Part shown: positions 4,613-44,421 of the stretch, in pieces
How positions within the stretch are numbered: the stretch's first letter is position 1
Layout of the letters: every line of letters starts with the position of its first letter
Assembly: GCA_964597845.1 (NCBI GenBank)
Contig: CAZQZR010000001.1
Span: 6,722-70,721, forward strand
Direction of reading: 5' to 3'
Length of the DNA: 64,000 bases
DNA from: an uncultured bacterium
Lineage (GTDB): Bacteria > Hydrothermota > Tepidihabitantia > Tepidihabitantales > Tepidihabitantaceae
The notes under the pieces: model-generated
Database searches by the model: none
What the model saw: only the letters and a program-made list of their open reading frames with translations
Told to the model about the DNA's origin: nothing
Program-made: the position numbers and the translations under genes

Positions 4613-4766
4613 GAGTCACTCTGGAGCCCGGTAAGAAGTCACTGCAGAGTGGCAGAGCGCCGTGGTCTACCGTTCTCTGAAGAATCGTTGCGTCCGGCAT
4701 GATGCGTGACGCGCCCACGTCAACGCTTTCTGCTCTTGAAGCATGGCGTATTTGATAAGGAGTTTT

Positions 4767-6704
4767 GTGCGATTCAAAGTCACGTTCGTAGCGTCCGCAC
4801 TTTTCCTCTGCTTCGCGACGCTGTTCGCGTCGGTTCCGACGGTACTTCCCGCAGGCATTGAAAGGCTACCCAATGGCAATACGCTCATCTGTGACGCCGG
4901 CGCGATGGGACAACCCACGGCTAGAGTCATCGAGGTCGACAGCAACGAACACCTGGTCTGGGCCTACGTCCGCAGCGACATCCAGTGGGCGCATACCGCC
5001 CGCCGACTTGCCAATGGCAACACGCTTGTCACCGCCACCGACAGCAACCGTGTCTTCGAGGTCACTCCCCGCGGTGACGTTGTCTGGGAAATGAGGTCGG
5101 GCCTGAACTACCCGAACGAGGCCTACCGCCTTGCCAACGGCAACACTCTTATCACCCAGAAGAACTCCGACCGGGTTACCGAGGTTAACACCGACCGCAA
5201 CATAGTCTGGAGCTACACCTGCTTGGCCGGTCCTCACAACGGGACTCGGCTGGCCAACGGAAATACCACCATATGCGACTCGGACCTGGACCGGGTGATC
5301 GAGGTCGACTCGTCAGGCACGATCGTCTGGCAGTACGCGACGGGTCTGGACTGGGCACGCTGCGTCCAGCGCCTGCCGAATGGCAACACGCTGATAACCG
5401 ACAGCCAGCACAACCGGGTTATCGAAGTCGACTCGGCGGGAAACATCAAGTGGACTCTCTCATCCGGGCTATCAATGCCGTACCAAGCAACCCGTCTCGA
5501 TAATGGGAACACTGTCGTATCCACCGGCAAACGTGTCATCGAAGTCGATTCGGCCCGGACCATCGTCTGGCAGTACCCGCCAAGCGCCTCCGCTGTTGCC
5601 GTCGAGACGCTCTGGGTTACCAATCCAACATCCGGCTGCAGCCTCTACGTCCACATCCACCGGCCGGCGAGCGCGGGGCCCGACAACAAGGTCCCTGCGG
5701 TCGTGTTGATACCGCGCGAGAGTAATGCCGGAACGCAAATGGACCAGAACGGCCTCGCCGACCGGGTGGCGTCCGACGGGTTCGCGGCGCTTCACTTCGA
5801 CGCCGAGGGACGCGGCCTAAGCAGCGGCACCGAGGACTACAACGGTTACTTCCACCAAGACGGCCTGCAGGCCTGCGTCCTCGAGCTTGCCACCAGGCAA
5901 TACGTTGACACTGCGAAGATAGGAATCTACGCGCGCGGGTACGGCGTCGTGATGGCAGCGGGCATGATTGACCGCCACCCGCAACCGAGAATCAAGTTCC
6001 TGATGGACTTGGAAGGTCCGTCCGACCGGTACGGAACCAACAGCGACTCCGGCGGCCACGTGCCGGTGCCTGTAGACTCGGAGTCATTTTGGGCCGAGCG
6101 CGAGGCAGGCCGGTTCATGAAGAGCGTGCCCGCGGCCTACCTCCGAATCCAGACCGAAACCGACTACACCGGCCGCATCCCGGACAACCACCACGCCATT
6201 GCGCTCATTGACAGCGCAACCTCGACCGTGTATGGTGGCTCTGGCATAAGCGTCTGGACTCGAGTCAATGACTCGGTAATGAACCCGGAGGACAACACCT
6301 ACATGCTGGCGGATCCGCCTCAGTGGATTGCGGAGAAAGAGGAACGCAACCTGGTGTGCCGCGAGCTTCTCTATCTTCACGAGCTCGCCGGTCGCGACTT
6401 CGAGAGCGCGGTGAGGACTTCCCTGCTTCCGGCACCACGCACCTCAGGTCTCTCGCTGGACCTGTCCCCAAACCCTTTCAGGCATCAGGCCCGGGTCGAG
6501 TTCCTCGCCCCGGTTTCCGGCTGGATGCAACTCAAGACTTTCTCGACGGACGGCAGGCTCGTCGCCAGCCAGGCTCAGACCGCGACCCTTGGGCAGCGGA
6601 TGTCCTTCAGACTCGATGGCACAAAGCTCGCGAACGGCATCTACCTGGTGCAGCTGGTGACGTCCGCCGGCGTCTACGCCCAGAAAACCGCGGTTCTGAA
6701 GTAG
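4767..6704 (+). CDS. secreted six-bladed beta-propeller plus alpha/beta-hydrolase protein with T9SS C-terminal sorting domain
   Basis: ORF 4743..6704. GTG 4767 preceded by AAGGAG (4757-4762) gives signal peptide MRFKVTFVASALFLCFATLFA. Six ~42-aa repeats RL(A/P)NGNTLI..D..RVIEVD..G.IVW. C-terminus LDLSPNPFRHQARVEF...GIYLVQLVTSAGVYAQKTAVLK. Confidence 0.7.
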   Translation: MRFKVTFVASALFLCFATLFASVPTVLPAGIERLPNGNTLICDAGAMGQPTARVIEVDSNEHLVWAYVRSDIQWAHTARRLANGNTLVTATDSNRVFEVTPRGDVVWEMRSGLNYPNEAYRLANGNTLITQKNSDRVTEVNTDRNIVWSYTCLAGPHNGTRLANGNTTICDSDLDRVIEVDSSGTIVWQYATGLDWARCVQRLPNGNTLITDSQHNRVIEVDSAGNIKWTLSSGLSMPYQATRLDNGNTVVSTGKRVIEVDSARTIVWQYPPSASAVAVETLWVTNPTSGCSLYVHIHRPASAGPDNKVPAVVLIPRESNAGTQMDQNGLADRVASDGFAALHFDAEGRGLSSGTEDYNGYFHQDGLQACVLELATRQYVDTAKIGIYARGYGVVMAAGMIDRHPQPRIKFLMDLEGPSDRYGTNSDSGGHVPVPVDSESFWAEREAGRFMKSVPAAYLRIQTETDYTGRIPDNHHAIALIDSATSTVYGGSGISVWTRVNDSVMNPEDNTYMLADPPQWIAEKEERNLVCRELLYLHELAGRDFESAVRTSLLPAPRTSGLSLDLSPNPFRHQARVEFLAPVSGWMQLKTFSTDGRLVASQAQTATLGQRMSFRLDGTKLANGIYLVQLVTSAGVYAQKTAVLK

Positions 6705-37451: not shown

Positions 37452-40400
37452 CTAGCGGCTGAGCACCACCTTTGCGCTGGTGCGGCTGTTGCCTGATGCG
37501 AGCGTGACGAAGTAAAGGCCGGGAGCGACGTTGCGACCGGCGTTGTCGCGGGCGTCCCAGGCGAGTGACAAGGGACGAGGGACGGAGGACGCGGCGACCG
37601 GCAGTGAGCGGACGAGGCGGCCCTGCGCATCGTAGACGTGCAGGGAGGAGTTAGCAGGTAGCAGTGAGCAGACTATGCGGAGGGTCTTGCGGAAGGGATT
37701 GGGAAACAGGTTAAGCGTCAGGCGTGATGCGTCGAGCGGGGAGCGTTCCGAGACACCGAGCCCGGTGGCGAGGAAAATCGAGACGTTGTTACTGCCGTAG
37801 TTGGTGGTCGCGAGGTCGAGCGCGCCGTCCCGGTTGAAGTCGGCCGTGCCGATGGTCCACGTCCCGCTGCCGGTTGTGTACGACGCCGCGGTGCCGAACG
37901 TGCCGTCGCCGTTGTTGAGCAGGACATAGGCAGACGTGCCGTTGCTCGAGGCGACGCCTAAGTCGATGTCGCCGTCGCCGTCGAAGTCTCCACCTTCGAT
38001 TGTGTGGGCAGCGGAAGGAATGGTATAGGTTGCCGGGGCGTAGTAGCCGCCGCCGTTGTTAAGCAGGATTGCGACCGATGCGGTTGAGGTGGACACGACC
38101 GCGATGTCGGCCCCGCCGTCGCCGTTCAGGTCGTTAACGCAGAGTGCCTCGGGCCCGGCTACGGCGGTGAAGTTGGCCAGCCGGGAGAACATGCCCGCCC
38201 CGTCGTTGTATAGAACGCTGATGTTGTCGTTGCCCTGGTTGCAGCAGGCGATGTCGAAGTCGCCGTCGTTGTCGACGTCGAACGCGGTCACGCCGTGTGC
38301 CCACGACCCGGCCGAGTAGCTCGTTGGTCCGGCGAAGGTCCCCGAGCCGTTGTTGACCATCACTTTCACATTGTCAGCCGAGCCCCAGCCGTCGGTGAGG
38401 ACGATGTCCACGTCGCCGTCGCCGTCAAAGTCGGCGCCGGATATGTACTGGCCAAGGGTCGCCGGTATGTAGGTGCCGGCATTGGTGAACGTGCCGGAGC
38501 CGTTGTTCTTAAGGATTTCGAGGCGGGACGAGCCCGGCTCGTTGTGGAACACGGCGAGGTCGACGTCATGGTCCGAGTCGAAGTCGGCGGCGAATACCGC
38601 TATCGGGTCGTCGTTCACCGTAGTGTAGGAAGGCGAGGCGAACGTGCCGTCGCCGTTGTTGCGCAGCAGGGCGGCTGCGGCAGGGGAATTGCAGGTGGTG
38701 ACTACGTCAACGTCGCCATCCCCGTCGAAGTCGGCGCCGGTCAGGCCGCGCGGCTGGGCGCCGGTGGGGAAGGCGTTCTGGGTCGCGAACGTGCCGCTGG
38801 ATGCGAAGGGTATAGCGGTGGTGAAGGTCCAGCCGAACCCGCCAAGGTATGTGCCGTTGCTGCCGCGAATGCTCTTTGTCAGGGTGGCGACAACCGGCTC
38901 GCCGGTCATGAAGTTGGCTGCCGGGTCGAGCCAAGCTACCCGCCCCACGCTGTCATAGCTGACCGCGCCGTGGCGCAGGCCAGTGCGCGCCCCGCGTACG
39001 ATGAAGCTGGTCGAATCGAGCGTGGACGGGTCCAATCCGAGATTGAAGCCGGCAGACACGCCGGTAGTTTCCGGCGCTGCGGTCGCGTATTGCTCGGGGA
39101 TGGTGGCGCTGACCCGGAGCGCGTTGTCGTTCAGCAGCACCGAGTAGTCGTCTGAGAGGTAGTTGGTAGTGGCAAGGTCCAGGTCGCCGTCCGAGTCAAA
39201 GTCACCCGACGTGACCGAGGAAGGTTCGTCGCCGGTTCGGAAACCAACGCCGGGAGAGAATGCGCCGCTGCCATTATTCAGGAATACCATCGCTCGGTCG
39301 TTGTTGGCGTTGGCCGACACCAGGTCGAGCGCGCCGTCGCCGTTCAGGTCAGCCAGCGCCAGACCGGTCGGTTCACCGGGGTCGGCGTACTTGGTTCGGG
39401 TACCGAGGCCGCCCTGGCCGTCGCCCATCAGCACCGATATGCTGTCTGCGTCTATGTTGGTCACGGCCACGTCGATGCTGCCGTCCGCGTTCAGGTCGCC
39501 GGCAACAACCGCGACCGGAGACAGGCCGGCGGCGAAATCGGCCGCCGGGACAAACGTCCCGTCACCACGGCCCAGCAGCAGGGAAACGCTGTTGGAGATG
39601 TCGTTGGCCGTAATCAGGTCGGGCCAGCCGTCGTTGTTGAAGTCTGCGGACGCGACCGACACCGGCGCAGTGCCGGTCGTGCAGTAGGCTGCGGCAGCGA
39701 ATGTCCCATCCCCGTTGCCGAGCAGCAGGGCGACCCGGTTGTCGCCGGCACAGGTGGACGCCAGGTCGAGGAAGCCGTCGAGATTCAGGTCGGCCGCACA
39801 GAGACCGAACGGATTCAGGCCGGTCGGGTAGGTAACCGGTGCGGCGAACGTCCCGTCGCCGTTACCGAGCAGCACCGCGACGTAGTTGGGGCCGGACACG
39901 GCCACGGCGATATCCAGGATACTGTCGGAGTCGAAGTCCCCGGTGCACGCCGTGCGCGGCGTCGAGCCAAGCGGGTAAGATGCGAGCGTATCGAAACTCC
40001 CGTTGCCCTGCCCGAGCAAAATCGTGATATCTTGGGCACTCAGACTGACGACCGCCAGATCGAGATTACCGTCGCGGTTGAAGTCGGCGGAGATGACGCT
40101 ATACGGTGCCAGGTGCGTGGAGATGGCGGTGTGGGTTGCGAACTGACCGGAGCCGCCATCGACCGCGGTGAAGAACTGCCACGCGCAGCCGGGGAAGGTA
40201 TCGCCGCCCGCGGAACGGACGGCATTGGTCAGTTCTACCGTGACCAGTTCGCCGGGCCGGAGTTCTTCGTCCGGGTCGAGTCCGGCCACGTGACCGACCG
40301 AGTCGTAGGTTACCGCGCCGAACCGCCAGCCGGTGAACTGTGAGTACATCCGGAACGATGCGGCCGATAGGGTCGCCGGGTCCATCGGAACATTGAAGCC

Positions 40401-41342
40401 GGCCAGGGCCGATGTCGCGACGGACACGGCCAGCGCGTTACGGGTCGGGACAAGCGATGTAACCATGGGCAGGTCCGAGACCGCGCCGGGACCGCCGTAC
40501 GCGCCCATGTCGTTTCGGGTTCCGTCCGGGTCGTTGTACTGCGGGGCGGGATTGCCGTAGTCGATGCAGGGCGAGCCGGCCTGCAGGTGGAAGTTACGCG
40601 CGGCGCTGTCGACGTATACCGGGTCGACTGAGTCGGAGCCGACGCCCGGGGTTGCCTGCTGGTAGTTGGTCGCATTGTTCCAGACGTCGTTGTAGGTCAG
40701 CGCGGGCGGTGTGCCGCCGCCCGGACCGTAAACACCGTACATCGAGCAACCCGTGACGATGTTGTTCATGAATACCGGGCCGTAACCCGAGTTGTCGGAG
40801 AAGCCGATGCGACAGTTGTGAATCGTGTTATTGACCACGGTCGCGCCTGCACCGGTCGAAACGCCGTTGTAGAGGTTATCCGTAATCACGTTGTTGGTAA
40901 TGACGGCGGCGCTGCCGTTCCAGAGCGCGATGCCGCAGTCGTTGCCGGTGATGCGGCAGTTGGCGATTTCCGGCCGCGCGCCTGTGTTGCAGAACACGCC
41001 GCCGCCGCCGGGCATGCTGCCGCCGTTGAGCGCGCCGGTTACTGTGAATCCCTTCAGCTTCGTATCGGACGTGATGGCGTTGCCGATGGCGCGGACCACG
41101 TCGCCCGCATTGCCGCCGCCGTCGATAGTCGAGAGACCTTCGCCCGCGCCCTGCACTACGACGCCGGCTTTCAGGTTGATTTCCTCGACGTAAGTGCCGG
41201 GGGCGACCATCACGATATCGCCGGCGTTCGCGGCATCAATGCCCTGCTGGATAGTCGGGTACTGACTCGGCACGTAGACGATGTCGGCCCGGGCCGGCAC
41301 CGCCGCGGCTAGGAATACAAGGACGAGCACAAGACGGTTCAT
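37452..41342 (-). CDS. giant secreted protein: right-handed beta-helix, Ig-like domains, many FG-GAP/VCBS repeats and a T9SS C-terminal sorting domain
   Basis: 1296 aa with signal peptide MNRLVLVLVFLAAAVPARA. Parallel beta-helix repeats (NNVITDN, NNTIHNC), more than 10 repeats of (A/G)DFN.DG..D(L/I) type, and tail LNLFPNPFRKTL...GLYFVTLASGNSRTSAKVVLSR. Confidence 0.8.
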   Translation of the reverse strand: MNRLVLVLVFLAAAVPARADIVYVPSQYPTIQQGIDAANAGDIVMVAPGTYVEEINLKAGVVVQGAGEGLSTIDGGGNAGDVVRAIGNAITSDTKLKGFTVTGALNGGSMPGGGGVFCNTGARPEIANCRITGNDCGIALWNGSAAVITNNVITDNLYNGVSTGAGATVVNNTIHNCRIGFSDNSGYGPVFMNNIVTGCSMYGVYGPGGGTPPALTYNDVWNNATNYQQATPGVGSDSVDPVYVDSAARNFHLQAGSPCIDYGNPAPQYNDPDGTRNDMGAYGGPGAVSDLPMVTSLVPTRNALAVSVATSALAGFNVPMDPATLSAASFRMYSQFTGWRFGAVTYDSVGHVAGLDPDEELRPGELVTVELTNAVRSAGGDTFPGCAWQFFTAVDGGSGQFATHTAISTHLAPYSVISADFNRDGNLDLAVVSLSAQDITILLGQGNGSFDTLASYPLGSTPRTACTGDFDSDSILDIAVAVSGPNYVAVLLGNGDGTFAAPVTYPTGLNPFGLCAADLNLDGFLDLASTCAGDNRVALLLGNGDGTFAAAAYCTTGTAPVSVASADFNNDGWPDLITANDISNSVSLLLGRGDGTFVPAADFAAGLSPVAVVAGDLNADGSIDVAVTNIDADSISVLMGDGQGGLGTRTKYADPGEPTGLALADLNGDGALDLVSANANNDRAMVFLNNGSGAFSPGVGFRTGDEPSSVTSGDFDSDGDLDLATTNYLSDDYSVLLNDNALRVSATIPEQYATAAPETTGVSAGFNLGLDPSTLDSTSFIVRGARTGLRHGAVSYDSVGRVAWLDPAANFMTGEPVVATLTKSIRGSNGTYLGGFGWTFTTAIPFASSGTFATQNAFPTGAQPRGLTGADFDGDGDVDVVTTCNSPAAAALLRNNGDGTFASPSYTTVNDDPIAVFAADFDSDHDVDLAVFHNEPGSSRLEILKNNGSGTFTNAGTYIPATLGQYISGADFDGDGDVDIVLTDGWGSADNVKVMVNNGSGTFAGPTSYSAGSWAHGVTAFDVDNDGDFDIACCNQGNDNISVLYNDGAGMFSRLANFTAVAGPEALCVNDLNGDGGADIAVVSTSTASVAILLNNGGGYYAPATYTIPSAAHTIEGGDFDGDGDIDLGVASSNGTSAYVLLNNGDGTFGTAASYTTGSGTWTIGTADFNRDGALDLATTNYGSNNVSIFLATGLGVSERSPLDASRLTLNLFPNPFRKTLRIVCSLLPANSSLHVYDAQGRLVRSLPVAASSVPRPLSLAWDARDNAGRNVAPGLYFVTLASGNSRTSAKVVLSR

Positions 41343-41453
41343 GGCGACCTTCCTTTCAAGTCCGGTAGCGAACAGTATGGCGCTTCACGGTATGCTCAGC
41401 TTAGGACAGAGCAGCGGCGCTGTCAACAACGCAGCCGGCCGCCCCCGACGCTG

Positions 41454-41482
41454 TTGACATGTCAGGGCTGCGCGCCTATTCT
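41454..41482 (+). promoter_or_regulatory. sigma-70-type promoter of the NTase/nuclease pair
   Basis: TTGACA, 17 nt, TATTCT. Confidence 0.5.
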
Positions 41483-41571
41483 TGAGCATCCCGGTTCGGC
41501 CCGCAGGGCCGGGATGCAGACGTCGTTAATTCGATACTTTCCCGGCGCGGGACGGCGCTGGAGGAGGCACG

Positions 41572-42333
41572 ATGTTACCGGATGCATACGTCCGTTCGAT
41601 TCTGGCCAAGTACGAACTGCCGAGCGGCGAGGGCTCGCCGGCTGAGCTCGCCGCGGCCGAGCTGAGGCAACCGATTACCGAATGGGCCGGTCGGTTCCTG
41701 CTGGACATTCGGTTCTGCGGGTCGTATGCGAAGGAAACACGGATCCGGGGCGCGACCGACATCGACCTGTTGATTTCGCTCGGACCGCGCACGCCGCTGG
41801 ACATCGACAAGCTCTACGACCGCTTCTTCGACTTCATGAAGCGCCGCGGCTACAAGCCCCGACGCCAGAGCGTCACCGTCGGCGTGACGCATCACGGTCT
41901 GATGGTGGACCTGATACCGGCCAAGCAGGAATGGGGCGGCGCGAACGACCACCGGATTTTCGAGACCGAACATCAGCGAATCACCCGAACCAATTTCGAC
42001 ACGCACCTCCAGGTTGTGAAGGAATCGGGCACCATCGAGGAAATCCGTCTGCTGAAAATCTGGCGCACCCTGCGTAACCTCCGCCTGCCGTCGTTATGCC
42101 TCGAACTGGCCGTGATGGACGCCCTGCGCCGTCAGGCGCGTCACCAGCCGGCGGCAAACATGGAGGTCGTGCTGCGGTATCTTAAGGACGTCCTGCCGAG
42201 CGCGCCGATTCGGGACCCGGCCAATTTTGAGAACCTTGTCTCCGACGACCTGCTGAAGCACGAGAAACTGGCTATCTCCGAGGCTGCGGCCGAGAGCCTG
42301 AAGCACTCCGACTGGGCCAAGATCGTCTGGTGA
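41572..42333 (+). CDS. minimal Pol-beta-fold nucleotidyltransferase, CD-NTase/OAS-like
   Basis: 253 aa. GGAGGAGG SD. GSYAKETRIRGATDIDLLISL (GS..DxD), third acidic strand MVDLIPA, then IRLLKIWRTLRNLRLPSLCLELAVMDAL, resembling the OAS/CD-NTase helical lobe. Confidence 0.6.
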   Translation: MLPDAYVRSILAKYELPSGEGSPAELAAAELRQPITEWAGRFLLDIRFCGSYAKETRIRGATDIDLLISLGPRTPLDIDKLYDRFFDFMKRRGYKPRRQSVTVGVTHHGLMVDLIPAKQEWGGANDHRIFETEHQRITRTNFDTHLQVVKESGTIEEIRLLKIWRTLRNLRLPSLCLELAVMDALRRQARHQPAANMEVVLRYLKDVLPSAPIRDPANFENLVSDDLLKHEKLAISEAAAESLKHSDWAKIVW

Positions 42334-42378
42334 CCGCGGGCGGAAGAGACTCAAGGGACAGAGAGATAAAGGGATAGA

Positions 42379-42840
42379 GTGCCGAACCCGGACGAGGTCG
42401 CGCGCCGGCGCGTCGTCCGTCGTCGGCTCGTGGAGAACCGGATTGCGTGGTCGCGCCACGCAAAGGCAGTGGCCGCGCAGCGCGCGACCGGCTGTCCCGG
42501 CCGGGCGTACAACCAGCTTGAGGCACGGCTGGCGAAACTACTCGACGAAGCCAAGATTGATTACCGCTGGCAGTTCCCGCTGGGGCCGTACGTGTACGAT
42601 TTCCTGCTGCCGAACCGAACGCTGGTCGAAGTCCATGGCACGTACTGGCACGCCGACCCGCGCCGCTACGACCCCAAAGCCCTCACGCCGGACCAGCGCC
42701 GCAACCTGCTGCACGACATTGACAAACGGCTCTTTGCCGCGCGGAAGGGCTACCGGCTGAAAGTCGTCTGGGAAGCGGATTTGCGCAAGGATGACCTTAC
42801 GATCGAGGAGCTGCTCGGCCCCGGCCGGCTCGAAGCCTGA
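42379..42840 (+). CDS. Vsr/DUF559-like PD-(D/E)xK endonuclease-fold protein
   Basis: 153 aa. LEARLAKLLDEAKIDYRWQFPLGPYVYDFLLPNRTLVEVHGTYWHADP matches the DUF559/Vsr core layout. Lies 45 nt after the NTase gene. Confidence 0.55.
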   Translation: MPNPDEVARRRVVRRRLVENRIAWSRHAKAVAAQRATGCPGRAYNQLEARLAKLLDEAKIDYRWQFPLGPYVYDFLLPNRTLVEVHGTYWHADPRRYDPKALTPDQRRNLLHDIDKRLFAARKGYRLKVVWEADLRKDDLTIEELLGPGRLEA

Positions 42841-42884
42841 GCCGATTTCTTTGATTTCGACCCCGGTTTCCATATCCTCGTTCG

Positions 42885-43586
42885 GTGCGCGTGACACTAC
42901 TGACGGCCGTCCTGGCCCTGGCCGGGACGACGTGCTATGCGAGTATCGCCTCGTCGGTCATGCTCGGGTATCGTGGCGAACCGGGCGTTGAGTCGAAGCT
43001 GGTCGCGACCGCGATGGCCGACATCGTCCCGGTTCAATACCTGAAGGTAGACGCCGGGTTGTCGTTCAACGTATTTCAGAACAACGGTGTGGGCGCGGTC
43101 GGCCTGGGTCTCGGCGCGGTGCTGTTCCGTCCTGCCGGGCTCTCAATCAGGTTCGCGGCCCAGCACCAGCAGTGGAACGACTGGCAGGCAGGGGAGAACC
43201 GGGCGCTGGCTACAGTCGAAGCGGGGCCGGTCTATGGTTTGGAGGCCGGCTTCGGAGTCGCCCGCCGCGTGTCGGTGTTCGGCGCGGACGACTACCGGTC
43301 GCCGTTCGTGTGGAAGAGCGACGCGGCCGAGTGGAACTACGCGTACCGCCTGACGTGGAAGTTCCTGCGCAGAGAGAGTTGGTGGCTCAAGGCGGGCTTC
43401 TCAAGCTACGACCTGTTCACCGTCCACAACCCGCAGCAGTTCCCTCTCTGCCTGAGCGGGGCGTACTCCTTGAAGGACAACCTAGACCTGGTCATGGACG
43501 CCGGCACAGCCATCGTCGGATATTCGGGCGGTCTTGCCTCGTTCCACGAAATGACGCTGAACGTCGGGGTGAGGTATGAGTTCTAG
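42885..43586 (+). CDS. outer-membrane beta-barrel protein
   Basis: 233 aa. Signal peptide MRVTLLTAVLALAGTTCYA, alternating-hydrophobic strands, C-terminal LNVGVRYEF. Confidence 0.6.
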   Translation: MRVTLLTAVLALAGTTCYASIASSVMLGYRGEPGVESKLVATAMADIVPVQYLKVDAGLSFNVFQNNGVGAVGLGLGAVLFRPAGLSIRFAAQHQQWNDWQAGENRALATVEAGPVYGLEAGFGVARRVSVFGADDYRSPFVWKSDAAEWNYAYRLTWKFLRRESWWLKAGFSSYDLFTVHNPQQFPLCLSGAYSLKDNLDLVMDAGTAIVGYSGGLASFHEMTLNVGVRYEF

Positions 43587-44421
43587 GCGCGCCGGGATAC
43601 TTTGCCTTGCGGCCCTGCTCGCACTTTGCGCCTGCGAGTGGGACCTCTGGGCAATAGCCACTCGTCCAACCGTGGAAGACCGCGTGCGCGAGAACCTGAC
43701 CGGCGAGCCGCCCGCGCCCGGTCCGGTTCCGGTCAACCCGGACTCGTTCCAGTTCGCGGTGTTCGGCGACCCCCAGATCGGGCACGACAACGTGAACAAC
43801 CTTGGCCGGTTCAGGCAGGACGTCGCGGCCAGGGGTATTGACTTCTTCTGCGTGCTCGGCGACCTGACCAACGACGCGACAACGGACGAGGTAGACAGCA
43901 TCAAGCTGGACCTCGACCGGGTCGGCATCCCTTACTACGCCACCATCGGCAACCACGACCTGTTCCAGGCCGATGGCTGGGAACGCTTCAAGCAGAACTA
44001 CGGGCCGAGCTGTTTCCCGGTAGTCATCGCCGACCGCATCAAGCTGATATTCCTCGATACCGCCGACGGCACCGTCGGCCCGACCCAGTTTGCCTGGCTC
44101 GAAAGCGAGTTGCAGGACGACCGGTTCATCAAGATCCTCCTCACGCACTACCCGGTCTATGACGGCGAGGAACCGACCATGTGGCGGCTGGCCAGCCCGT
44201 CCGAGCGGATCAAACTTCAAAGCCGGCTGGGAAAGTACGGCGTCTACGCCTGGTGTGCCGGCCACATCCATGCGTGGCGACACGCGGTGGTCGACGGCGT
44301 CAACCATTTCACCTGCGGCACGATGGCTCCGGGCGCGCCCGACTACGGCACCGGCAAGGGCTACCTCCTGTTCACCTTCGCCCACGACTCGCTCTCGTGG
44401 CAGCGGGTCGTCTTCGAGTAG
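43576..44421 (+). CDS. calcineurin-like metallophosphoesterase lipoprotein
   Basis: Lipobox LLALCAC. Motifs FGDPQIG, VLGDLTND, GNHD, LTHYP and GHIH. Confidence 0.8.
   Translation: MSSRRAGILCLAALLALCACEWDLWAIATRPTVEDRVRENLTGEPPAPGPVPVNPDSFQFAVFGDPQIGHDNVNNLGRFRQDVAARGIDFFCVLGDLTNDATTDEVDSIKLDLDRVGIPYYATIGNHDLFQADGWERFKQNYGPSCFPVVIADRIKLIFLDTADGTVGPTQFAWLESELQDDRFIKILLTHYPVYDGEEPTMWRLASPSERIKLQSRLGKYGVYAWCAGHIHAWRHAVVDGVNHFTCGTMAPGAPDYGTGKGYLLFTFAHDSLSWQRVVFE

Follow-up and report, generated by a model that had tools for sequence, protein, structure and literature searches.

A minimal CD-NTase of the CdnC-like family and a minimal Vsr/EDxHD-fold endonuclease form a bicistronic transcription unit of their own, expressed in nature, within the 64-kb stretch of DNA analysed here (hereafter, the window), and the pair sits in a vertically inherited block at a fixed chromosomal position. 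The reading to which we lean, close to but below an even bet, is a secondary, co-transcribed juxtaposition of two genes that would work independently, without direct coupling between cyclase and nuclease. The interpretation given in the preliminary description, a defence module with a new type of effector, is partly supported.

Organization of the locus

Both predicted ORFs were confirmed in the window, 45 nt apart, together with all the motifs quoted for them in the preliminary description. The cyclase ORF (41572–42333, + strand) starts with ATG and encodes 253 aa; the nuclease ORF (42379–42840, + strand) starts with GTG and encodes 153 aa, the 45-nt intergenic spacer between them (42334–42378, + strand) being crossed by RNA contigs. 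Both are considered real genes because of (i) their homologue clusters, 85 for the cyclase and 111 for the nuclease, and (ii) their dN/dS values, 0.15–0.29 and 0.21–0.42, respectively, indicative of purifying selection. The pair is flanked by a 1296-aa FG-GAP/Big_5/Por_Secre_tail protein encoded on the minus strand and by two OMP-like ORFs, in agreement with the setting between a giant adhesin-like gene and OMP genes described earlier. The neighbours in the window comprise an adhesin, OMP-like proteins, an exported phosphoesterase and a dehydrogenase; annotation of these genes disclosed neither a defence-island nor a mobile context at the locus, and no NucC was found within the 64-kb window. 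As a separate observation, a distant member of the cyclase family (L002) adjoins AbiEii, unlike the window locus.

The cyclase is a minimal CdnC-like CD-NTase

The 253-aa product is a true CD-NTase of minimal size and belongs to the CdnC-like family. The window copy preserves the full GS/DxD/D catalytic set (G50 and S51, D63 and D65, and D113), with the motif GSYAKETRIRGATDIDLL spanning residues 50–67, MVDLIPA residues 111–117 and the helical-lobe motif IRLLKIWRTLRNLRLPSLCLELAV residues 158–181; D113 aligns with the Asp of the CdnC 'VDIVP' motif. The PADLOC Cyclase model PDLC00803 is matched over its full length (7e-68, residues 3–253 of the 253-position model), the scores against Pfam SMODS (17.1 bits; cut-off 26.5) and NCBIfam CBASS_cyclase_a (45.8; cut-off 200) lie below the respective thresholds, and the closest solved relative in profile searches of the PDB is CdnC (6p80, 1.3e-11). 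The AF2 model (pLDDT 92.7) and its Foldseek comparison reveal the bilobed CD-NTase/OAS fold, the top 14 PDB matches being all CD-NTases (CdnC, CdnD, CdnE, CdnG and CdnB; TMq 0.69–0.80), with TMq values of 0.74–0.80 against CdnC, CdnD, CdnG and CdnB. Identity as a housekeeping or antibiotic NTase was considered and rejected, the matches to NTP_transf_2 and CCA enzymes being weak and those to CD-NTases strong. The protein groups with CD-NTases, as first proposed; its portrayal as shorter than typical CBASS cyclases stands as to size, but this size is normal for a known family, one that usually has NucC as its partner. The enzyme probably retains NTP binding and the synthesis of a nucleotide signal for some receptor; judging from CdnC and from the partnership with NucC, the signal may be cA3-like.

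NucC lies directly downstream of the cyclase in 58 of 83 related loci, and the window cyclase is 33–47% identical to the NucC-linked family members. In the candidate division WOR-3 the NucC partner would have been lost, while purifying selection continues to act on the cyclase, which has stayed resident in the chromosome. At the third catalytic position, 52 of 100 unique cyclase sequences of the WOR-3 clade have D, 36 have H and 12 have Q, and about 60% of the cyclases in paired loci carry H or Q in place of the Asp. Conservation of the nuclease nevertheless extends to those loci, which, together with the absence of a defence island, favours two independently working genes.

That this residue toggles while the gene is under purifying selection suggests that the clade can do without canonical cyclase chemistry, and thereby lends some support to an improbable alternative, a coupling that dispenses with a diffusible messenger. 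The NTase would either restrain or modify the nuclease, by toxin–antitoxin-like nucleotidylylation or direct binding, or work on the DNA ends that the nuclease generates. The operon structure and the translational arrangement described below agree with such a coupling; nevertheless, in fold and best matches the NTase resembles CD-NTases and not MNT/AbiEii-type or antibiotic NTases, the nuclease is tolerated on its own with no NTase linked to it, and no observation points to a protein–protein interface.

The nuclease is a bare Vsr/EDxHD catalytic module

The 153-aa protein displays, as the preliminary description had held, the Vsr/DUF559-type PD-(D/E)xK nuclease fold, and all Vsr catalytic residues are intact. 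It carries the motifs YVYDFLLP and LVEVHGTYWHADP and comprises (i) a long N-terminal helix (residues 4–37) and (ii) a catalytic core with E48, D74, E84-x-H86 and H91. The PDB profile match is to E. coli Vsr (1cw0, 8.3e-5, over Vsr residues 4–130), and the HMM alignment pairs E48, D74, H86 and H91 with Vsr E25, D51, H64 and H69, and Y89/W90 with the Vsr aromatic pair F67/W68. The four catalytic residues are conserved in the alignment of the family, invariant or nearly so among 61 sequences. Structural comparison of the AF2 model (pLDDT 86.7) by Foldseek matches Vsr (1cw0_A, E 1.2e-5, TMq 0.61) and also I-Bth0305I (3r3p, E 5.5e-5) and the DUF559 protein 3hrl. Family models respond less strongly: Pfam Vsr, DUF559 and Phage_endo_I all fall near E 0.02, below cut-off (15.3 bits for Pfam Vsr against a cut-off of 27), TIGR00632 scores 18.2 against 97.85, and the PADLOC matches are Vsr (4e-4) and HEase (8e-4), with no PADLOC CBASS effector model matching the protein. 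The conserved Vsr catalytic residues predict a Mg2+-dependent enzyme that would nick or cleave DNA.

In profile searches, HTH+NUMOD3 homing-endonuclease-like proteins emerge as the nearest wider relatives (1e-37 to 1e-17), and their alignment takes in the helix after NUMOD3; PHROG homing endonuclease families are matched as well, and 102 matches were found in BFVD. The 153-aa protein consists of the linker helix and the core alone, without HTH or NUMOD modules, and is in effect a Vsr/EDxHD-type endonuclease pared down to its catalytic module. The basic N-terminal extension of 45 residues noticed at the outset is present, with 10 R and 1 K, but is not a novelty, corresponding to the Vsr N-terminal helix and to the post-NUMOD3 linker of the homing-endonuclease-like relatives; it is conserved at the protein level, which confirms the long reading frame as real. 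No known sensor domain was matched in the nuclease, as expected from the preliminary description: SAVED, STING and CARF are absent both from it and from 10 relatives examined among 7,538 profile relatives, those 10 carrying HTH/NUMOD3 only. Descent by decay from NucC was ruled out (hhalign probability 0.1%). Low-GC, virus-like contigs encode further distant homologues, which form the C-terminal domains of large proteins.

A special case of the independent-genes reading, which we regard as unlikely, takes the nuclease for a true Vsr orthologue that serves a Dcm-type methyltransferase and stands beside the cyclase by chance. The alignment with E. coli Vsr, full-length and with catalytic residues and aromatic pair kept, the similar size, the shared fold, the JGI annotation of the nuclease homologues as Vsr and the housekeeping context of solo copies are all compatible with it. 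On the other hand, the protein reaches neither the Pfam nor the TIGRFAM cut-off for Vsr, the alignment to 1cw0 shows other residues where Vsr has the Cys ligands of its zinc site, the C5-methyltransferase motif IV of the Dcm type (PCQxFS) is absent from all frames of the 64-kb window, and the homing-endonuclease-like proteins are nearer by profile than Vsr.

Transcription unit and leader

The attribution of an own promoter and Shine-Dalgarno (SD) sequence to the pair is upheld by a conserved promoter with a transcript start just downstream. The promoter-like TTGACA-17-TATTCT (41454–41482, + strand) was the one site recovered in a consensus scan, against 0.3 expected in shuffles, and the −35 GTTGACA and −10 TAT-N-CT are invariant across 23 paired loci despite near-saturated synonymous sites. 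RNA contigs from four lake metatranscriptomes begin at 41499/41500, with zero coverage over 41308–41434, and both genes lie on one transcript in all four, the spacer being crossed by contigs in each: X7 (42222–42407), X10 (42071–42435), X11 (41500–42402) and X12 (42195–42384). At the 3′ end, a terminator-like hairpin (42826–42854, + strand) overlies the nuclease stop codon and is followed by a T-rich run; its consensus-scan count is not above that of shuffles, and its conservation among related loci is only loose. Over 42832–42958 the RNA depth drops from about 5 to 2, and it is 0 by 43086.

The 5′ leader folds, as a single sequence, with −49.6 kcal/mol (41485–41580; z = −3.7) and comprises two hairpins. 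Hairpin 1 (41486–41517, + strand) has a 12-bp stem in the window and compensatory changes in three of the five pairs of the RNAalifold consensus. In hairpin 2 (41537–41567, + strand) an anti-SD CUUUCC and a CCGGCG clamp pair with the SD GGAGGAGG (41560–41567), which is located a few bases upstream of the cyclase ATG; its sequence is nearly invariant in 23 loci, with 11 consensus pairs and one CG to GC compensation. The conserved leader is thus predicted, from sequence and folding, to sequester the SD of the cyclase. No Rfam family matches it, and the orphan cyclases L010 and L011 have no hairpin 2 ahead of them. Downstream, the cyclase–nuclease spacer ranges from −7 to 296 nt across 37 loci (median about 86), and the nuclease start codons are weak and overlap or lie close in many paired loci.

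This arrangement brings forward a second reading, possible though less probable than the favoured one, namely a re-wired type I CBASS in which the Vsr/EDxHD nuclease replaced a lost NucC as effector, the two proteins constituting a true cyclase-to-nuclease signalling pair. The infection-sensing cyclase would make a cyclic oligonucleotide, probably cA3, that the nuclease would bind without a sensor domain before degrading DNA. The pair would act in cis at this locus and perhaps in trans in genomes that carry the two genes apart; the alternation of D, H and Q at the third residue would then reflect altered chemistry or regulation of signal synthesis. NucC illustrates that a CBASS effector can do without a separate sensor domain. 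The origin of the cyclase in a bona fide CBASS family, with the window copy catalytically complete, is consistent with this reading, as are the position of the nuclease in the NucC slot, on the same strand and the same transcript, which would be unlikely for a random neighbour, and the promoter and SD-sequestering leader, conserved only where the pair exists. Moreover, the HTH/NUMOD3 targeting modules of the relatives have been stripped from the nuclease, and the starts overlap or lie close in many loci; the lack of any DNA-targeting module and the weak start codons would suit a regulated toxic effector. These features count against independent genes, as does the retention of a CD-NTase for so long without any effector, which would be unusual.

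Distribution and inheritance

The 37 paired loci all belong to one WOR-3 sub-lineage with common flanking synteny, and a Vsr-like neighbour is confined to WOR-3 cyclases at about 70% identity or above (9 + 28 loci). The paired loci share the downstream genes OMP233 and Metallophos, and all four genes are similar in dS; the dS of the pair matches that of its flanking genes, and nothing indicates horizontal mobility. About 35 of the 37 loci retain both genes, under purifying selection, a point in favour of a re-wired CBASS; frameshifts affect one cyclase (L105) and one nuclease (L006) among about 37 paired loci, and may be assembly errors.

Each gene also stands alone. Orphan cyclases occur in housekeeping contexts (L011, L012, L014–L016, L018 and L151–L154), and solo nucleases with room upstream were found at L107, L113, L117–L119, L121, L123, L148–L150 and L155–L158, those at L148–L150 adjoining S18-L9-TyrRS. 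Solo and paired nucleases display identical architecture and catalytic residues. In the MAG CAZQFS01 the cyclase (L010, contig 29) and the nuclease (L149, contig 5) are unlinked; this is the one MAG for which genome-level co-presence is demonstrable from source accessions, and its possession of both genes would be expected also of a pair acting in trans.

Because orthologues stand alone in sister lineages, the two genes are separable, and the pair is not established as a new defence system. The expectation that the two families would be neighbours elsewhere largely failed, no repeated independent co-occurrence being found beyond the single vertically inherited WOR-3 sub-lineage; a scan of viral contigs for independent cyclase and Vsr-like pairings gave 3 distant matches only. 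At L130–L133, a 269-aa protein with a cyclase-like motif precedes a 481-aa zinc-ribbon/HTH/Vsr-like protein; these loci were rejected as an independent pairing, the 269-aa 'AFLDILGY' protein having no Pfam or PADLOC match.

A re-wired CBASS must contend with an association that arose once and was inherited with unrelated flanking genes, with orthologues of both genes found alone, with a nuclease that has no sensor domain, no relative, among the 10 examined, fused to SAVED, CARF or STING and no match among PADLOC CBASS effector models, with H or Q as the third catalytic residue in most paired loci, and with the lack of a defence island and of signs of mobility. In the literature searched, no CBASS with a Vsr or DUF559 effector was found; to this extent the proposal of a new effector type stands, whereas the genomic context and single-lineage synteny speak against a defence module. 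The reading as two independent genes accommodates the likeness of solo and paired nucleases and the nuclease relatives that carry HTH/NUMOD3 and no sensor domain. Both genes would have been brought together, in one WOR-3 sub-lineage, behind a conserved strong promoter and an SD-sequestering leader, with the nuclease translated from weak start codons in the joined operon; co-transcription need not mean that the cyclase product activates the nuclease.

Should the nuclease respond to the cyclase, CBASS would gain a very small, homing-endonuclease-derived effector class, and an uncultured phylum would provide a case of a defence module that has settled in the chromosome as a stably inherited operon. 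That a Vsr/EDxHD nuclease under a CdnC-like cyclase is an effector class not described for CBASS, domesticated in WOR-3, is possible, though less likely than not. If the nuclease does not respond, the WOR-3 cyclases still represent a little-studied case, a CD-NTase lineage that has lost its effector although purifying selection acts on it throughout a deep clade, that is transcribed in nature and that has repeatedly exchanged a catalytic carboxylate for His or Gln, and they raise the question of the role of orphan CD-NTases.

Comparison with known systems

The EDxHD homing endonucleases (I-Bth0305I, 3R3P) and the HTH+NUMOD3+Vsr-like proteins of phages and mobile elements are the nearest profile relatives of the nuclease and share a common fold with it; unlike them, it lacks HTH and NUMOD3 and is chromosomally fixed, outside any intron, intein or phage. 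With E. coli Vsr (1CW0/1VSR) it shares the fold, the N-terminal DNA-contacting helix, the equivalents of E25, D51, H64 and H69, the aromatic pair and the size (153 aa against the 155-residue 1cw0 chain). It differs in the missing zinc-site cysteines, a longer N-terminal helix, scores below the family cut-offs, no dcm gene found nearby and co-transcription with a CD-NTase.

E. coli MS115-1 CdnC (6P80), the closest solved structure to the cyclase (1.3e-11, TMq 0.74–0.76), likewise combines a Pol-beta core with a helical lobe. It is a cA3 synthase of a type III CBASS with HORMA, TRIP13 and NucC, whereas the window cyclase is about 65 residues shorter and has no HORMA or TRIP13 genes nearby. Compared to the two-gene type I CBASS formed by a CdnC-like cyclase (PDLC00803) and NucC (PDLC00745), the downstream nuclease of the window is unrelated to NucC (153 aa against about 245 aa), and the WOR-3 clade is vertically inherited, often effector-less, with the third Asp frequently replaced; nevertheless, both cyclases belong to the same ~250-aa family, the window copy preserves the GS/DxD/D set, and in both a nuclease is encoded immediately downstream on the same strand.

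The Cyclase and Its Genomic Surroundings

The pair comprises (i) a 253-aa cyclase (41572-42333, + strand, ATG start) and (ii) a 153-aa nuclease (42379-42840, + strand, GTG start), separated by a 45-nt spacer; both ORFs, their coordinates, the spacer and every motif quoted in the preliminary description are confirmed in the sequence. The cyclase matches the PADLOC CBASS cyclase model PDLC00803 end to end (7e-68, residues 3-253 of the 253-position model), but stays below threshold with Pfam SMODS, at 17.1 bits against 26.5, and with NCBIfam CBASS_cyclase_a, at 45.8 against 200. With the family profile, the top solved relative is CdnC from E. coli MS115-1 (1.3e-11), and the AlphaFold model (pLDDT 92.7) superposes on CdnC, CdnD, CdnG and CdnB with TMq values of 0.74-0.80. 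The full-length match, the CdnC match and the predicted fold together indicate that the protein is a genuine CD-NTase and a member of a known family, bearing out the minimal CD-NTase/OAS-like identity first proposed. It groups with CD-NTases, and a housekeeping or antibiotic NTase identity is ruled out by the profile and fold matches. Its length, first regarded as short for a CBASS cyclase, is normal for its own family.

The flanks are, as described, a giant adhesin-like gene and OMP genes, with two OMP-like ORFs. Upstream, the opposite strand encodes a secreted 1296-aa protein (37452-41342, - strand) comprising a β-helix, 14 FG-GAP repeats, Big_5 domains and a T9SS Por_Secre_tail. Downstream, an OMP-like ORF of 233 aa that lacks a Pfam match (OMP233, 42885-43586) shares 11 nt with the gene for a calcineurin-like phosphoesterase of 281 aa (Metallophos, 43576-44421), which bears a lipoprotein-type signal sequence; both stay syntenic with the pair throughout the sub-lineage. 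The closest public relative of the locus, L004, from a lake MAG of candidate division WOR-3, has neighbours identical in kind and a 97% identical cyclase; the 1296-aa protein diverges faster than its neighbours (82% identity).

NucC as the Usual Partner

Searching species-representative genomes with the cyclase family alignment turned up 80 loci, spread over many phyla. In 58/83 loci a protein of ~245 aa lies directly 3′ of the cyclase, the stop and start codons mostly overlapping or abutting, and this partner is NucC (PADLOC Effector "Endonuclease (NucC)", 3.8e-93; Pfam DUF6602, 4.7e-34). The window cyclase is thus a descendant of a two-gene cyclase-NucC CBASS lineage. A few family members have other neighbours or none: L024 carries a 172-aa TM protein downstream (1989-2507), L032 a 413-aa TIR-like protein upstream (4723-5964), and L002 and L003 an upstream, divergent NucC, which adjoins an AbiEii gene in L002 (885-2580). 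The differing neighbours of L024, L032 and L002 illustrate effector swapping in the family. A relation of the window nuclease to NucC was also considered and is undetectable (hhalign probability 0.1%).

The nuclease stands exactly in the effector slot, which favors a re-wired CBASS in which the cyclase would signal to a new effector, a reading that we consider unlikely. In line with the first proposal of an effector type unused by CBASS, the cyclase and Vsr-like nuclease combination has no description in the literature searched; nevertheless, the CBASS hallmarks examined (an accepted effector family, independent recurrence of the pairing and defence-island surroundings) are not found at the pair.

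Single Origin of the Association

From the cyclase side, a Vsr-like gene occurs only at nine WOR-3 loci with ~70% or higher cyclase identity. Neither nuclease is found at L011 (71%), L154 (61%), L012/L151-153 (57%), L014 (55%) or L015/16/18 (47-51%), where the cyclases lie among housekeeping genes. A large ArnT/PMT-like membrane glycosyltransferase gene repeatedly adjoins deep-branching orphan cyclases of the WOR-3-like clade (L015, 981-2933; L016, 1055-3406; L018, 1769-3925; L012, 5989-7518), a conserved housekeeping-type synteny.

From the nuclease side, a metagenome scan yielded 61 loci. All nuclease copies of at least ~60% identity with upstream room (28 loci) have the cyclase, with OMP233 and Metallophos downstream, whereas no cyclase precedes the 55-64%-identity nucleases of L107, L113, L117-L119, L121 and L123, with 0.8-3.5 kb available upstream. 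The solo nuclease of L148-L150 adjoins S18-L9-TyrRS, the nearest outlying minimal relative is solo too, and MAG CAZQFS01 carries both genes unlinked (cyclase on contig 29, L010; nuclease on contig 5, L149). The two families are neighbours within a single WOR-3 sub-lineage; the association traces to one evolutionary event, and each gene also occurs alone. The downstream context of the pair is fixed and the upstream context variable, so that the cyclase-nuclease junction does not stand out on synteny alone. The sole downstream break seen is a transposase-like ORF replacing OMP233 and Metallophos in L008 (7560-8240).

The single origin, the orthologues functioning alone, the like architecture of solo and paired nucleases and the housekeeping-like context all weigh against a signalling pair. 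We therefore lean, tentatively, toward a secondary juxtaposition of independently working genes.

Selection and Catalytic-Site Variation

The dN/dS values (0.15-0.29 for the cyclase, 0.21-0.42 for the nuclease) resemble those of flanking genes, with matching dS; the pair is under ordinary purifying selection and co-divergence, with neither an arms-race signature nor recent transfer. GS and DxD do not vary. The position of the third catalytic Asp, D113 (codon 41908-41910), which aligns with the Asp in CdnC "VDIVP", was compared over the homologues from L001-L129 and P0001-P0084: 58/58 NucC-linked cyclases retain D, whereas 100 unique WOR-3-clade sequences show D (52), H (36) or Q (12) and no other residue. 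A neighbour-joining tree places 14 or more changes at this position, under purifying selection. At most paired loci the residue is H or Q; the window copy has D. Retention of the nuclease even where the cyclase is devoid of the canonical residue further disfavors signalling between the two; some other kind of cyclase-nuclease coupling appears improbable.

Transcription and Regulation

The promoter-like TTGACA-17-TATTCT (41454-41482, + strand), proposed as the pair's own, was recovered by a consensus scan as the one such site in 1.7 kb, versus 0.3 expected, and is conserved in paired loci. The 130 nt upstream of the cyclase are strikingly conserved in 23 paired loci despite dS of 0.4-1.0, with GTTGACA and TAT-N-CT invariant (alignment A6; GTTGACA-17-TATNCT). 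Promoter and two-hairpin 5′ leader (41454-41571) are found only ahead of nuclease-paired cyclases, being absent at the orphans L010 and L011. The leader (single-sequence fold z = -3.7; no Rfam match) comprises (i) hairpin 1, variable in sequence with compensatory changes, and (ii) hairpin 2, CUUUCCCGGCGC...GCGCCGGAGGAGG, nearly invariant, in which the anti-SD CUUUCC pairs with and buries the Shine-Dalgarno sequence GGAGGAGG ahead of the cyclase ATG; hairpin 2 is accordingly a candidate translational switch.

The locus sequence is present in eight lake metatranscriptome runs. In the four examined, contigs begin at 41499/41500, with cyclase depth 6-10, cross the spacer in 4/4 runs, thin out along the nuclease and stop by ~42976; 41308-41434 and 43086-43339 have zero depth. 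These contigs are without strand information and DNA carry-over is possible; the sharp, gene-specific coverage nevertheless speaks for RNA. A conserved TTGATT-16/17-TATCCT motif (42851-42878), lying after the nuclease stop codon and ahead of OMP233, probably provides OMP233-Metallophos with a promoter of their own, which fits the coverage gap after the nuclease.

The nuclease starts with GTG or TTG in nearly all of 37 loci (e.g., L001 8810, L091 4098, L104 ~4150), in some overlapping the cyclase stop codon (GTGA). At several loci no ATG, GTG or TTG stands ahead of or within the conserved stretch that encodes the N-terminus; this points to a non-canonical start and to translation kept deliberately low. 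One tightly regulated transcript common to both genes, and a weakly translated nuclease with no targeting module, count in favor of a signalling pair.

The Nuclease Compared with Known Systems

Library matches to the nuclease are weak (Pfam Vsr, DUF559 and Phage_endo_I, all near E 0.02; PADLOC Vsr 4e-4, HEase 8e-4), and a 61-sequence profile reaches E. coli Vsr (1cw0) at 8.3e-5 over Vsr residues 4-130. In the model (pLDDT 86.7), one long helix at the N-terminus (residues 4-37) precedes a core of known fold, closest to Vsr (TMq 0.61), then the homing endonuclease I-Bth0305I, then a DUF559 protein, in agreement with the Vsr/DUF559-type PD-(D/E)xK assignment; PHROGs and a viral structure library are consistent with a Vsr/EDxHD homing-endonuclease-like placement.

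In an exhaustive profile search (7,538 representatives), a handful of minimal WOR-3-type forms rank first, followed by 210-440-aa proteins with the whole nuclease module C-terminal. The ten of these scanned combine N-terminal HTH domains with NUMOD3, as modular, free-standing homing endonucleases do, and 0/10 carry a sensor domain. The nuclease likewise has no known cyclic-nucleotide sensor, as first noted, and the want of a sensor or sensor-fused relative also speaks against signalling. On the high-GC contigs L130-L133 (e.g., L131 882-3143), an unknown-family 269-aa protein (motif YVAFLDILGY) forms a two-gene unit with a 481-aa multi-zinc-ribbon/HTH protein encoded 7 nt further downstream, whose C-terminus is a Vsr-like nuclease; an HNH-like gene follows.

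The basic N-terminal extension first described is present, but is homologous to the helix after NUMOD3 in the HTH + NUMOD3 relatives; this homology and architecture make the nuclease a stripped catalytic module of a Vsr/EDxHD-type family. Whereas the homing-endonuclease-like proteins carry DNA-binding modules, the 153-aa nuclease has dispensed with them. Compared to E. coli Vsr, the alignment to 1cw0 reveals none of the zinc-site cysteines, and a strict role in Vsr repair, which would be a particular form of the juxtaposition, seems a distant prospect; the catalytic residues, whose loss had been envisaged, are nevertheless preserved, with E48, D74, H86 and H91 equivalent to Vsr E25, D51, H64 and H69, and Y89/W90 to F67/W68.
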